From an uncultured Clostridium sp. (GTDB lineage: Bacteria; Bacillota; Clostridia; TANB77; CAG-508): DNA of 60,989 bases. Location: the NCBI GenBank assembly GCA_947245515.1, contig CAMXQV010000005.1:1-60989 (forward strand). The letters run 5' to 3'. Below, in pieces: positions 4,534-47,383 of this stretch. Within the stretch, counting starts at the first letter, position 1. Each line of letters starts with the position of its first letter. The notes under the pieces were generated by a model. It worked only from the letters and a program-made list of their open reading frames with translations, was not told the DNA's origin and made no database searches. Both the position numbers and the translations under genes were made by a program.

Positions 4534-4642
4534 AATTTGTTCTCACTCGATTTGAGTTTTCGACTGTAAGGAGAAAATCTCAAAGGGCTAGCGATTGTAG
4601 CTTTTTATACAATAGGAAAGTATAACTTTTCTATTGTATAAA
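4534..4642 (+). repeat. Intergenic repeat family A, copy 1 (two-hairpin element)
   Basis: AATTTGTTCTCACTCGATTTGAGTTTTCGACTGTAAGGAGAAAATCTCAAAGGGCTAGCGATTGTAGCTTTTTATACAATAGGAAAGTATAACTTTTCTATTGTATAAA. Near-identical blocks lie at 10515-10608, 19878-19987 (inverted) and 60857-60937. Confidence 0.85.
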
Positions 4643-4710
4643 TAAATTTAAGACTATTAATTAAAAATAAATTAAATATTTATTCCTAACTTAATAGTCT
4701 TAAACTTATA

Positions 4711-10514: not shown

Positions 10515-10608
10515 AATTGAGTTTTTGACTGTAAGGAGAAAATCTCAAAGGGCTAGCAATTATAGCTTTTTTATACAATAGGAAAATATGACTTTCCTAT
10601 TGTATAAA
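10515..10608 (+). repeat. Intergenic repeat family A, copy 2
   Basis: AATTGAGTTTTTGACTGTAAGGAGAAAATCTCAAAGGGCTAGCAATTATAGCTTTTTTATACAATAGGAAAATATGACTTTCCTATTGTATAAAAA aligns with copy 1. Confidence 0.85.
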
Positions 10609-10646
10609 AAAATACGAATTCATTATTAAAATTCGTATTTTTTATT
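10605..10646. terminator. Bidirectional intrinsic terminator
   Basis: Stem AATACGAATT (10611-10620) / AATTCGTATT (10630-10639). An A-run lies upstream and a T-run downstream, so a T-tract follows the stem on both strands. Confidence 0.6.
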
Positions 10647-16289: not shown

Positions 16290-16549
16290 CTACTTGAAAT
16301 GCAAAGCTTTTTTTATAATTATTTTTAATTTTATTAATTATTATAAATAGCGCGAGAAGGTTTCTAATTATTTATTTTTGAACGACTCCGGGGTAACCAT
16401 TCAAAAATTCTTAGAAAAATTTGATAAACTTTTCTATAGAATTTTTAGGATAGGGCAGTGAAAATAATAAATAATTAGAAACCTTTAGGAGCGAGTAGTT
16501 AATCTAATTATAAAAAATAATTATAAAAAAAGCCTTGCATTTCAAGTAG
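16290..16549. repeat. Long palindromic repeat family B, copy 1
   Basis: Outer arms CTACTTGAAATGCAAAGCTTTTTTTATAATTATTTTT and its reverse complement. The conserved core (ATAGCGCGAGAAGG .. GACTCCGGGGTAACC .. TTCTTAGAAAA .. TTTTCTATAGAA .. GGAGCGAGTAG) is shared with 29251-29497. Confidence 0.85.
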
Positions 16550-17065: not shown

Positions 17066-17356
17066 AATTGCCATTAGGGACGGAGATTTTTGGCAATTAT
17101 TTTTATTATTACTATTATTATTTTCTTACTCAGAAAATAATTCTAATTATTTATTATTTTAATTATTCCATTCTAAAAACTTTTTGCCATCAGGAACCAA
17201 GATTTTTAGCAATTTTTTTATATTATATTTTAAATGTTGCAGAAGATTTTTCTAATTTTCTATCTTTAAACAACGTTATATTACATTATTATTAATTTAA
17301 AAATAATAGCAGTCTTAGATGGCAGAATTGCCAAAATTCTCCGTCCCCAATGGCAA
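17066..17356. repeat. Paired-hairpin repeat family C, copy 1
   Basis: Hairpin AATTGCCATTAGGGACGGAGATTTTTGGCAATT (17066-17098) and partner AATTGCCAAAATTCTCCGTCCCCAATGGCAA (17326-17356). A degenerate third hairpin TTGCCATCAGGAACCAAGATTTTTAGCAA lies between them. Confidence 0.8.
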
Positions 17357-17400
17357 AAAAAATATGCCAAAACTTTTATTATTTTGACATATCTTTTTTA

Positions 17401-36128: not shown

Positions 36129-36462
36129 AATAAGAAAGCTCTGTAAAATAGATTTCATAATTTCCTTCTGTAGAAATTAATAGTTTTCTACCTTCTCTTT
36201 CTTCTATTTTACCATATTTAATAATAATTTCCTCAATTTCTGTATCAGTTAAGTTTCTATTTTTAATAGTTTTTTCCTCAAAAATATCTGCCTCAAGCTT
36301 TTGAATTAAAGTCTCTTTTTCTATTTTTTCCTTAGACGAAACTGTTTTATCTATAATTCCTTGATGATTTATAGTAACTCCTATTGTAACTCCTGCTAAT
36401 ATCAATAATATTATTATGGTTACAATTAATGTTATCAATGTAACACCTCTTGTATCTTTCAT
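36127..36462 (-). CDS. Prepilin-like protein (type IV pilin-type N-terminal hydrophobic segment)
   Basis: Start trimmed to MKDTRGVTLITLIVTIIILLILAGV (SD AGGAGGAG upstream of ATG 36462). A G/VTLITLIV motif resembles the GFTLIE cleavage/methylation motif but lacks Glu5. Confidence 0.45.
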   Translation of the reverse strand: MKDTRGVTLITLIVTIIILLILAGVTIGVTINHQGIIDKTVSSKEKIEKETLIQKLEADIFEEKTIKNRNLTDTEIEEIIIKYGKIEEREGRKLLISTEGNYEIYFTELSY

Positions 36463-37176: not shown

Positions 37177-37899
37177 TTAATTACATTTAAAATACTCCTC
37201 AATTATATATAATAGTTTATCTTTGTTTTCTTTAAATTGGCTTTTTCTATGTCCATTAGCTCCAGATGGATGGGGAAATCCTAATAAACATTGTTCTTTT
37301 TTTATCAATTTTTCTTTTATCATTTGTTGTAATATCTCTTCTACTGCTTTACCTAATGGAATTATTAATGTATTCGATAAACATTTTACTTCTTTATAAA
37401 AATATTTTTTTGTAAAATCATATAGTATTTTACTATCCATTATCTTAGGATTAGAACCTGTATAATTTTTATTATTTATGAAAACAGGATATGGAATTAT
37501 TGAAGTGGTATGAAGTAAGTGATCTTTATCTTCAAACAGTTCATTACAAGATTTTATATGTAATTTTCTATTTAGCTCCAATTCATCTAACATTTCAATA
37601 AGATTTTTTCTCATACTTCCTACAAATCTTGAACTTCTTTTGCATTCTATTTTTATTTGTTGTAGTTCTACTTCTTTTAATAATGCATTTCTTGCAGTTC
37701 TATATGCAATACTAGTTTGTGTCCATCCAGGTGTTATTCCTACTATAAATATTTTTGCTTTATAATTAATTATTTCATTATGTGGTGCATAATAAATTTT
37801 GATATTGTCATTATTATATAGTTCAAATTTTTCAATTAATATATCTTCCTTATTAAAGTTATCTAGTTTTTTTATTTCCTTACAATATTTCTCAAACAT
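37177..37899 (-). CDS. Uracil-DNA glycosylase superfamily-like protein (tentative)
   Basis: 240-aa ORF. FIVGITPGWTQ and GFPHPSGANGHR resemble the GxxPG and HPS motifs of the UDG fold. Confidence 0.4.
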   Translation of the reverse strand: MFEKYCKEIKKLDNFNKEDILIEKFELYNNDNIKIYYAPHNEIINYKAKIFIVGITPGWTQTSIAYRTARNALLKEVELQQIKIECKRSSRFVGSMRKNLIEMLDELELNRKLHIKSCNELFEDKDHLLHTTSIIPYPVFINNKNYTGSNPKIMDSKILYDFTKKYFYKEVKCLSNTLIIPLGKAVEEILQQMIKEKLIKKEQCLLGFPHPSGANGHRKSQFKENKDKLLYIIEEYFKCN

Positions 37900-38045
37900 T
37901 CTATCTCCCTACAAATTACTATCTTGTGTTTCGATTATATCACAAAGGACAAGTAATTTTCAACTTAATTACTTGTCCTTTGTAAATTGTATCTCATATA
38001 TATAAACTTGTAATATTTCCTTTTCATTATATCTACTAAAACAAA

Positions 38046-39149: not shown

Positions 39150-39231
39150 ATTTTTTCCTCCTTTAATTGTTGAATATGCTTTGTTATTCAACCTTTTTTA
39201 TTTAGTATTACCTTATTTTTTTAAGGTAATT

Positions 39232-39282
39232 CAATTCTATATCAAAAAAGAATACTTTTCAAGTATTCTTTAGAAATTTTTT
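39232..39282 (-). terminator. Terminator-containing 50-nt module, copy 2 (upstream of gap)
   Basis: CAATTCTATATCAAAAAAGAATACTTTTCAAGTATTCTTTAGAAATTTTTT differs from 36079-36128 by only a few mismatches. Confidence 0.55.
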
Positions 39283-39349
39283 CCATATTAATTTTTATTT
39301 ATTATTTGAAACTTTTTTTGCCAATAAACTTATTAATTTTAATATTTTA

Positions 39350-39547
39350 TATCCCAAAAGGCATGTATATATTATTTTTATATAATTTTAGATTGAAAGT
39401 AATTGAGATAGAAAATCTTTATAAATTTTATGGAAAGAGTTCAAGCTTGCCTTGGAAGGGTGCCATAAAATTTATTTAGATTTTCTACGAAAATTAGCTT
39501 GAGCTCTAAAATTATATAAAAATAATATATACATGCCTTTGGAGATA
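39350..39547. repeat. Long imperfect palindrome (element D)
   Basis: AAAGGCATGTATATATTATTTTTATATAATTTTAG .. CTAAAATTATATAAAAATAATATATACATGCCTTT. Inner arms AGAAAATCTTTATAAATTTTATGG / CCATAAAATTTATTTAGATTTTCT. Confidence 0.8.
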
Positions 39548-39597
39548 ATACAAATTTTAATAAATAATTAGGATTACTTTAAAATTAATAATAACTA

Positions 39598-47271: not shown

Positions 47272-47383
47272 AAGATGATTTTTGGGACGGAGGAAAAAAT
47301 CATCTCTAAATTCAATTTTTATATAATCTCATATTATTTTTTTATTTTAAGATGATTTTTTCCTCCGTCCCAAAAATCATCTT
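47272..47383. repeat. Paired-hairpin repeat family C, copy 3
   Basis: AAGATGATTTTTGGGACGGAGGAAAAAATCATCT (47272-47305) and AAGATGATTTTTTCCTCCGTCCCAAAAATCATCTT (47349-47383). The element abuts the ftsK SD. Confidence 0.9.

Follow-up and report, generated by a model that had tools for sequence, protein, structure and literature searches.

Hairpin repeats with a constant GGGACGG loop at gene boundaries of gut Clostridia: a probably mobile, REPIN/MITE-like family

A 60,989-nucleotide stretch of an uncultured Clostridium sp. genome (GenBank assembly GCA_947245515.1, contig CAMXQV010000005.1, positions 1 to 60,989; hereafter the window) carries three loci in which two hairpins stand in inverted orientation and present complementary GC-rich loops: ~17066-17357 (copy A), ~33779-33887 (copy B) and 47272-47383 (copy C). 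These loci are probably non-autonomous, loop-tagged hairpins of a kind resembling REPINs, the hairpin-forming doublets of repetitive extragenic palindromic (REP) sequences, and MITEs (miniature inverted-repeat transposable elements). They would survive at gene boundaries as what looks like selfish DNA, and the messenger RNA hairpin that they place beside a Shine-Dalgarno (SD) sequence would be a side effect. The three copies belong to a repeat family of gut Clostridia that appears to have been undescribed until now, in which the loop is constant, the stems are interchangeable, and individual copies are present in some species, absent from others and subject to decay.

A constant loop on interchangeable stems

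The window has a G+C content of ~25%, is 99.95% identical to contigs of the ENA assembly ERZ14651247, and is 88-98% identical to a mouse-gut metagenome-assembled genome (MAG), 'uncultured Clostridia bacterium MGBC161478' (GCA_948857205.1). The motif GGGACGGAG occurs in it exactly six times against an expectation of 0.70, and none of 100 shuffles reached six, which bears out the original prediction that so GC-rich a loop word is very unexpected here. The six sites (17077, 33792 and 47284 on the plus strand; 17339, 33867 and 47363 on the minus strand) form the three inverted pairs, located where they had been predicted and with the complementary loops described for them. Every arm of copies A to C folds locally into a hairpin that has the motif inside its loop and 6-12 bp of perfect pairing in its stem, and the stems are unlike between copies (AAGATGATTTTT, AAGATGACTTT and TTGCCA). 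No other GGGAC site in the window has a comparable perfect stem.

When one genome for each bacterial species (596 Gb) was scanned for the pattern GGGACGGAG + DWWW, a gap of 40-70 nt and WWWH + CTCCGTCCC, at least 120 loci matched. At least 84 of them lie on low-GC contigs, nearly all from uncultured gut Clostridia whose hosts are humans, mice, ruminants, rabbits and chickens. Among the low-GC loci listed, at least 25 distinct stem hexamers surround the common loop, for instance GATGATTTT, GTGCCAAT, TTGTCAAT, GTGACAAT, ATGTTTTTT, CTTGTTTTT and GTACA. Variant forms include nested pairs (loci L057 and L150), pairs whose partner carries a mutated motif and, in the MAG RGIG9027, a 15-16-nt unit, GGGGACGGAGATTTTC, that is repeated in tandem up to 12 times and followed by inverted arrays. 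The RGIG9027 arrays (L046, L063, L077, L082, L097, L107, L114, L118) consist of 2-12 tandem and then 1-12 inverted copies, with unequal copy numbers on the two sides, and often stand at contig ends.

About 35 further loci among the matches listed are high-GC. In these families the motif lies mostly within the stem of a plain palindrome, and a local stem of at least 6 bp is found in merely 10 of 112 arms; they were considered as relatives and set aside, as they may be unrelated or may have arisen by chance in a scan of 596 Gb. They include palindromic repeats with AAAAAGGGGACGGAGGTAATTAAGC-type arms in Xanthomonadales (L061, L073, L120, L129, L141), and palindromes of the same type in Myxococcales (L070/L081/L084) and Pseudohongiella (L092/L103/L137/L158), with a common 9-11-mer and usually no local hairpin.

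Because the pattern scan had selected on the motif, a motif-independent sample was drawn, consisting of 80 loci (954 kb, 29% G+C) fetched from metagenomes via gpmI similarity at 75-90% protein identity. GGGACGG occurs at 20 sites in this sample, and 15 of the 20 lie in hairpin loops closed by 6 bp or more of perfect stem. For 41 permuted 7-mers, with ~300 sites in all, the corresponding share was ~4%, the overlapping words GGGGACG and GGACGGG excepted. The earlier description of self-complementary but differing stems around conserved loops is thus confirmed in relatives as well as in the window. A search that started from the stems led to the same loop: in hairpins with the stems CGGGATT, TGTCAA, ATGATTT, GAACTTT and AGGACA, the loop almost always has (G)GGGACG(G) on its 5' side and a variable 3' side (GTCTCCA, GACTTG, TCCTTAA, AGCTT). 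Within a single stem family, too, the 5' part of the loop is constant (GGGACG or GGGGACGG) and the 3' part varies.

The unit of the family is a hairpin of ~30-35 nt, with an AT-rich stem of almost any sequence and a loop of 10-17 nt that starts with GGGACGG. It occurs solo, as inverted pairs 20-250 nt apart, and in some genomes as nested or tandem arrays; in the motif-independent sample and the window together, the arm with the G-loop comes first, whichever strand is read, in 10 of 10 pairs. Of 186 arms, 84 have A directly after GGGACGGAG, 80 have G, 20 have T and 2 have C, and the loops of relatives include GGGACGGGTC and GGGACGGTTC. Judged from these sequences, the constrained core is GGGACGG, extended in the window species to GGGACGGAG(G), and the GGAGG/CCUCC extension belongs to one sub-family. 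The anti-SD-like CCUCC, which had been taken for a conserved feature, must accordingly be given up as such.

A full-text search of a paper library found no mention there of the motif in a bacterial context; its matches were plant mariner/Stowaway terminal inverted repeats (TIRs) and unrelated primers only. Plasmid and phage records yielded no significant match to the element, and a weak match in a rodent microvirus was dismissed, as the matching sequence does not contain the motif.

Gene boundaries, empty sites and decay

In the window, as had been described, every copy lies between co-directional minus-strand genes: the ribosomal protein L19 gene and an Amidase_6 gene (copy A), tpiA and gpmI (copy B), and a 167-aa open reading frame (ORF) and ftsK (copy C). 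The distance from the end of the element to the next start codon is about 14-15 nt (A), 22 nt (B) and 13 nt (C), within 1 nt of the predicted 14, 22 and 14 when copy A is measured as about 15. Whichever strand is read, the element is 5'-GGGACGGAG...CTCCGTCCC-3', and its orientation relative to a gene is therefore uninformative; the SD-proximal loop does read CCUCCGUCCC on the mRNA, as predicted, but would do so in any orientation. Across the family, 76 elements have two assignable neighbours, of which 54 are in tandem, 17 convergent and 5 divergent contexts, and the adjoining genes, all with housekeeping roles, have no relation to one another.

In very many cases the 5' stem contains, or directly adjoins, the end of the upstream ORF. 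The TGA of ATGATTTTG serves as the upstream stop in at least seven independent loci, a TAA or TAG directly adjoins the stem in others, and in L102 the last tpiA codons are replaced by the element. Of 43 elements with 40 nt or more of intergenic space to spare, 22 lie in its outer 10% against ~8.6 expected; 14 of these are at the stop side, adjoining or overlapping the stop, and 8 at the SD side, where ~4 are expected. Because the element supplies a stop, an excess at the stop side is what would be expected if insertions in dispensable last codons survive. The SD-side excess is weak, and closeness to the SD largely reflects very short intergenic spacers in compact operons. Two of the three window copies nevertheless adjoin the SD, as the original prediction had it, although 41-66 nt lie free on their other side. 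On low-GC phage-like contigs (L014 at 1078-1494 and 1974-2231, with copies 586 nt apart; L017; L032), ORFs begin within the element and continue across it as MSMGTENFDN(I/V)KNEIIDKFKIIGCQKTP..., so that the repeat supplies N-terminal coding sequence to predicted ORFs.

Related genomes differ in the copies that they carry. The 61 kb of the window contain three pairs; in the relatives, two pairs and two solos have the exact 9-mer in 954 kb; and copy number between related species ranges from ~50 per Mb to almost none. At the tpiA-gpmI junction an element is present in the window, L199/L200 and L102, where the spacers of 38-62 nt are mutually unrelated, and absent from L188-L198, L201 and L203-L216, all of them about 84-88% identical in gpmI. 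Similarly, hairpins stand right after the stop of the GGGtGRT gene in four lineages, on unrelated stems (TTGTCAAAA, TGATCCTTTTT, TGAACTTT, TCGGGATT); L244 has a degenerate inverted pair slightly downstream of that stop, and ~15 other lineages have a terminator alone. Decay is visible within the window species, where copy B carries the mutated motifs GGGATGGAGG and CCTACGTCCC in two strains, with changes at 2 of 20 motif positions as against 4 of 39 spacer positions. Short-read contigs often end within an element. A family that is multi-copy, lineage-specific, present or absent at orthologous sites and decaying agrees with the alternative that the original prediction had itself named, a MITE-like element with an insertion preference.

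Two further candidate observations were discarded. L005 is probably a chimera or recombinant instead of an empty allele, its gpmI being 100% identical to that of the window and the 66 upstream nt divergent. Copying of stems from the target, an idea suggested by the ATGATTT and TTGACAAT sequences of some empty sites, was rejected as a general rule, since stems travel between loci and species, as CGGGATT does in L212, L213 and L258.

Dispersed duplex binding sites of a host protein that recognises GGGACGG, acting for example in nucleoid organisation, segregation or recombination and comparable to gyrase or IHF at the bacterial interspersed mosaic elements (BIMEs) of E. coli, would explain why the motif is conserved independently of its stems. 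The GGGGACGGAGATTTTC arrays of RGIG9027, tandem and then inverted and without local stems, also look like clustered sites, in one MAG. A protein that binds duplex DNA has no need of the stem complementarity that is kept around 75% of motif sites, and the swings in copy number between relatives are unlike those of an essential site, which makes this explanation improbable. An inverton, in which a global invertase would flip the segment between inverted repeats and so switch the promoter of the next gene, is harder still to credit. The likeness to gut-bacterial invertons is the superficial one of inverted repeats with a common core upstream of genes; at 20-70 nt, the spacers lack the length needed for flipping, and they contain no consistent promoter, a single spacer orientation was found at the assembly level in all assemblies examined, and solo units and convergent-gene contexts occur.

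Mobility weighed against a role in RNA

In the mechanism proposed here, a trans-acting enzyme would read the loop motif on the folded hairpin and copy or move the unit via single-stranded or cruciform DNA. The leading guess for this enzyme is an HUH/Y1-type nuclease analogous to RAYT (REP-associated tyrosine transposase) or to IS200-family TnpA; HUH enzymes recognise folded single-stranded DNA at Rep origins, at IS200/IS605 ends and in the REP-RAYT system (PMC6006769, PMC3733652). Recognition of this kind is suggested by stem complementarity whatever the sequence, the conserved loop, the lack of target duplication, the inverted doublets and the strand-biased solos. Propagation would be restricted to copies in which both loop and stem are intact, and constant loops, stems that vary by sub-family and decaying resident copies would follow. 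Insertions would survive at gene boundaries only, either between a stop and the next SD or in the last codons, where the element would donate the TGA of ATGATTTTG as a stop. A resident pair would be co-transcribed with its operon and fold as a ~35-bp hairpin just upstream of the next SD. As a by-product, this long hairpin may influence cleavage by RNase III, the stability of the mRNA or its translation; such effects would follow from the insertion and would not be why the sequence is there.

Several results weigh against mobility. Target-site duplication is absent at any offset or length among 34 same-family copies. The ORFs and domains of the window include no transposase or recombinase, neither was found among ORFs between neighbouring elements, recurrent locus ORFs or ORFs beside arrays, and tblastn with three Y1-transposase queries (IS200, IS608 and E. 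coli RAYT) found nothing in ~3 Mb of fetched loci. Recent movement was not seen, all assemblies of the window species carrying all three copies. Furthermore, the same junctions (tpiA-gpmI and the 3' end of the GGGtGRT gene) are occupied repeatedly, and some empty sites resemble the 5' stem of the hairpin found there elsewhere (ATGATTT; TTGACAAT), as at about -40 from gpmI in L188-L198 and after the GGGtGRT gene stop in L218/L220; such sequence could be an excision footprint, a sign of homology-guided targeting or a coincidence. Finally, eight of nine informative solo hairpins lie downstream of a stop with their G-loop in the sense strand, a bias that could be due to RNA-level selection instead of strand-biased insertion. 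Gene and replication direction are confounded in Firmicutes, so the bias is equally expected from strand-specific insertion of single-stranded DNA.

The closest known kind of element is the REP/BIME/REPIN group. REP and REPIN sequences and RAYT enzymes are known almost solely from Proteobacteria plus a few other phyla. Like the family of the window, this group comprises multi-copy hairpin units of 20-40 nt, mainly arranged as inverted dimers able to fold into a larger hairpin, which are extragenic and lie mostly downstream of genes, between unidirectional or convergent ORFs (PMC3733652, PMC3116915). Both also share lineage-specific abundance, the lack of target duplication and some units that overlap coding ends. 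The stem foot of known REPs bears an unpaired tag, GTAG or CGTC, their loops mostly measure 2-5 nt, and in Firmicutes no tagged REPs were reported (PMC3733652). In contrast, the Clostridia repeat keeps GGGACGG inside a 10-17-nt loop on AT-rich, freely variable stems whose feet vary and bear no GTAG/CGTC tag, and no RAYT match was obtained by tblastn with the three Y1 queries in the ~3 Mb of fetched loci.

Other known hairpins share fewer of these features. Correia/NEMIS, RUP, ERIC and bcr1 elements are gene-adjacent palindromes of ~100-150 nt, co-transcribed and forming long hairpins that RNase III can cleave; they sometimes supply stop codons or alter expression. Their terminal inverted repeats are simple, a target duplication accompanies them (TA for Correia), and a parent insertion sequence (IS) can be recognised. 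The Clostridia elements likewise have terminal inverted repeats and a long hairpin beside genes, but each arm is itself a hairpin and there is no target duplication; no full-length IS with matching ends was found in the fetched loci or in plasmid or phage records. HUH Rep origins, as in CRESS-DNA viruses and rolling-circle plasmids, and IS200/IS605 ends combine a conserved loop or adjacent sequence with a co-varying stem and strand-biased insertion. The Clostridia hairpin resembles them in its conserved loop and varying stem; they stand singly beside their own gene, whereas the Clostridia hairpins are dispersed through the chromosome as dozens of orphans.

A more specific proposal makes the elements MITEs of a DDE transposon of the IS630/Tc1-mariner superfamily, with CCTCCGTCCC as part of the plant mariner/Stowaway TIR, TA followed by CTCCCTCCGTCCCAG. 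The exact 10-mer CCTCCGTCCC, in many copies followed by an A-run, is identical to the TIR of Ppmar2; a giant-virus MAG in IMG/VR is dense with Stowaway-like MITEs that have TAC..CTCCGTCCCAGAT ends, and TA stands directly beside CTCCGTCCCC in some of the high-GC bacterial families. Stowaway/mariner elements have CTCCCTCCGT... at the outer terminus together with the TA, whereas the motif of the Clostridia, whose hosts are bacteria, is inverted in polarity, with the G-rich strand first, and sits in a loop 10-12 nt inside the arm. Neither TA nor any other target duplication accompanies it, local stems would be of no use to a DDE enzyme that binds double-stranded DNA, and no IS630-like gene was seen in the window ORFs or the recurrent locus ORFs. 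Such an origin is accordingly given little credence, slightly less than the host binding sites, and the 10-mer match is treated as a coincidence or, at most, a remote lead. The giant-virus MAG, GVMAG-S-1021933-23 (L018-L027, L034, L035, L038), has ~20% G+C, and its modules of ~100 nt, with TAC..CTCCGTCCCAGAT...ATCTGGGACGGAG..GTA ends and one per 0.1-1.5 kb, are Stowaway/mariner-like with the plant-type terminus.

The predicted folds bear on what the elements may do in RNA. Within a pair, each arm is the reverse complement of the other, with 85-97% complementarity over 33-53 nt, and minimum-energy folding predicts a single long hairpin for the sense RNA of all three window copies, at -59.2 (C), -47 (B) and -83.9 (A) kcal/mol, with z-scores of -11.6, -7.6 and -7.1, respectively. 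The local hairpins of copy C alone reach -10.8 and -9.4 kcal/mol, and a full 10-bp loop-loop duplex adds at most -20.6, for a kissing total of about -41 at best. As the energy of the long hairpin is far below this two-hairpin total, kissing hairpins are not the stable state; in these models, two hairpins with kissing loops are a possible metastable alternative, as a kinetic intermediate. At equilibrium, in RNA or single-stranded DNA, the long hairpin of ~35 bp, at -57 kcal/mol, is predicted to bury both loops. The two hairpins originally described for each copy thus exist as local structures, but the predicted stable fold is one long hairpin.

Substitutions and neighbouring signals were also surveyed. 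In 39 tandem contexts, arm-arm mismatches on the sense strand comprise 36 G:U and 33 A:C, and mismatches in local stems four of each, so that a preferential tolerance of G:U pairs is not indicated. At the gathering threshold, Rfam gave no match in the window; sub-threshold matches, to miRNA precursors and others, reflect a generic long-hairpin likeness with no motif identity and were discounted. The sense strand around the copies shows no terminator-like hairpin followed by a U tract, and sequences resembling promoters occur there at background level; the elements are therefore likely, on these sequence features, to be co-transcribed with their flanking genes. An intrinsic terminator is not supported, as no sense-strand U tract follows the hairpin, and readings as an uptake sequence, a CsrA site or a guanidine-II-like motif were considered and likewise not supported.

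A selected cis-acting RNA element, whose GGGACGG loop is read by a factor, or whose loops kiss or pair with the SD, and which sets processing, stability or translation, could draw on much of the same evidence. Its loop is conserved over many stems and species, solos are sense-oriented, placement after stops and before SDs exceeds a uniform prediction, the absence of terminators favours co-transcription, and the folds are stable, with z-scores of -7 to -12. It is nevertheless unlikely, since there is no G:U excess and no Rfam family, CCUCC is not conserved, convergent genes surround 17 of 76 copies, the genes alongside are of unrelated kinds, close relatives lack the element at the same junction, individual copies decay, and both loops are buried in the long hairpin. 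The same results, together with the absence of a downstream SD in the convergent contexts and the existence of solo hairpins, speak against the intercistronic device of the original prediction, in which a CCUCC loop would pair with the distal loop or the SD.

Anatomy of the window copies, other features and implications

Copies B and C lie 13.5 kb apart and have arms that are 91-97% alike. In the mRNA sense (minus strand), the 5' arm of copy C (47349..47383) reads AAGATGATTTTT, loop GGGACGGAGGA, AAAAATCATCTT, with a perfect 12-bp stem and the motif at 47363-47371 within this GGGACGGAGGA-loop arm. An AT-rich spacer of ~43 nt (47306..47348), of a kind that is unlike between copies and loci, leads to the minus-strand 3' arm (47272..47305), which has an 11-bp stem and a loop that reads CCTCCGTCCC on the minus and GGGACGGAGG on the plus strand; the GGAGG SD follows 3 nt and the ftsK ATG (47258) 13 nt after the end of this arm. 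Copy B, likewise read on the minus strand, begins immediately 3' of the tpiA stop TAA (33887-33889) with a 5' arm (33854..33886) composed of AAGATGACTTTA GGGACGGAGG AAAAAGTCATCT on a 10-bp stem. Beyond its spacer (33816..33853, ~38 nt) comes the 3' arm (33779..33815; GAAGATGATTTTTT CCTCCGTCCCC AAAATCATCTTC, 12-bp stem), which is 97% complementary to a copy C arm and has the gpmI ATG (33757) 22 nt on.

In copy A the minus-strand 5' arm (17328..17356; TTGCCA TTGGGGACGGAGAATTT TGGCAA, 6-bp stem) starts ~44 nt past the stop of the L19 gene, and the minus-strand 3' arm (17066..17098; AATTGCCA AAAATCTCCGTCCCTAA TGGCAATT, 8-bp stem) lies near the Amidase_6 ATG (17052). The interior between them (17099..17327) is ~230 nt long, and ~45 nt of it (17135-17179) resemble, in alignment, the interior of repeats at 16290-16549 and 29251-29500; from this likeness it is probably a nested or composite insertion. 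The two repeats are themselves MITE-like, ~260 nt in length with ~80% mutual identity, and have inverted ends of their own of 40-47 nt. The L19 gene (17401-17985) encodes 194 aa, with a long acidic C-terminal extension compared with the usual ~115 aa.

Other repeats and features occur elsewhere in the window. A 75-nt repeat, found three to four times and in both orientations (4572-4646, 10538-10612, 60866-60940; partial at 19877-19918), is made up of a terminator-like GCTAGCGATTGTAGCTTTTT and then a hairpin, TATACAATAGGAAA...TTTCCTATTGTATA. The SRP54/ffh gene (minus strand, 20110-21463) is split in two ORFs with a break near 21100-21140: the N domain and the first 36 GTPase positions lie at 21050-21463 and the remainder at 20110-21012. 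The downstream frame is open upstream of its listed start, where it reads GKLANLLRKQGKKPLLVACDIYRPAA, which indicates a frameshift or a sequencing error. The gap region is flanked by a duplicated terminator-like block of ~65 nt (AAAAAAGAATACTTTTCAAGTATTCTTT; 36064-36137 and 39217-39290) and by an inverted repeat (39330-39392 and 39505-39567) whose 63-nt arms are 86% complementary and 112 nt apart. Between gap and the next gene, a segment of ~690 nt (~37231-37919) with a weak ORF of the uracil-DNA glycosylase (UDG) superfamily (37177-37899) is present in the window and in ERZ14651247 and absent from the otherwise 98% identical MGBC161478 contig (L167), an insertion/deletion polymorphism.

The wider possibility that the family represents a new class of mobile hairpin is put forward tentatively, as a proposition that is doubtful at present. 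Members of such a class would depend on a putative single-strand DNA enzyme that reads a loop of 7-9 nt (GGGACGG) and leaves the stem free, would insert with strand bias at the 3' ends of genes and donate a stop, would double themselves into inverted pairs and arrays, and, in view of the sense-strand bias of the solos, may have a second life as RNA elements. If this is true, a loop-tagged counterpart of REPs, common among uncultured low-GC Clostridia of the gut, would extend such intragenomic replicators to a major part of the gut microbiome and would point to a putative hairpin-reading enzyme. The elements break short-read assemblies, with contigs ending inside them, and rewrite gene C-termini and stop codons. 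They also place 35-bp RNA hairpins in housekeeping operons such as gap-pgk-tpi-gpmI, where they may alter expression between strains, and their GGGACGG motif offers a simple marker for tracking these lineages.

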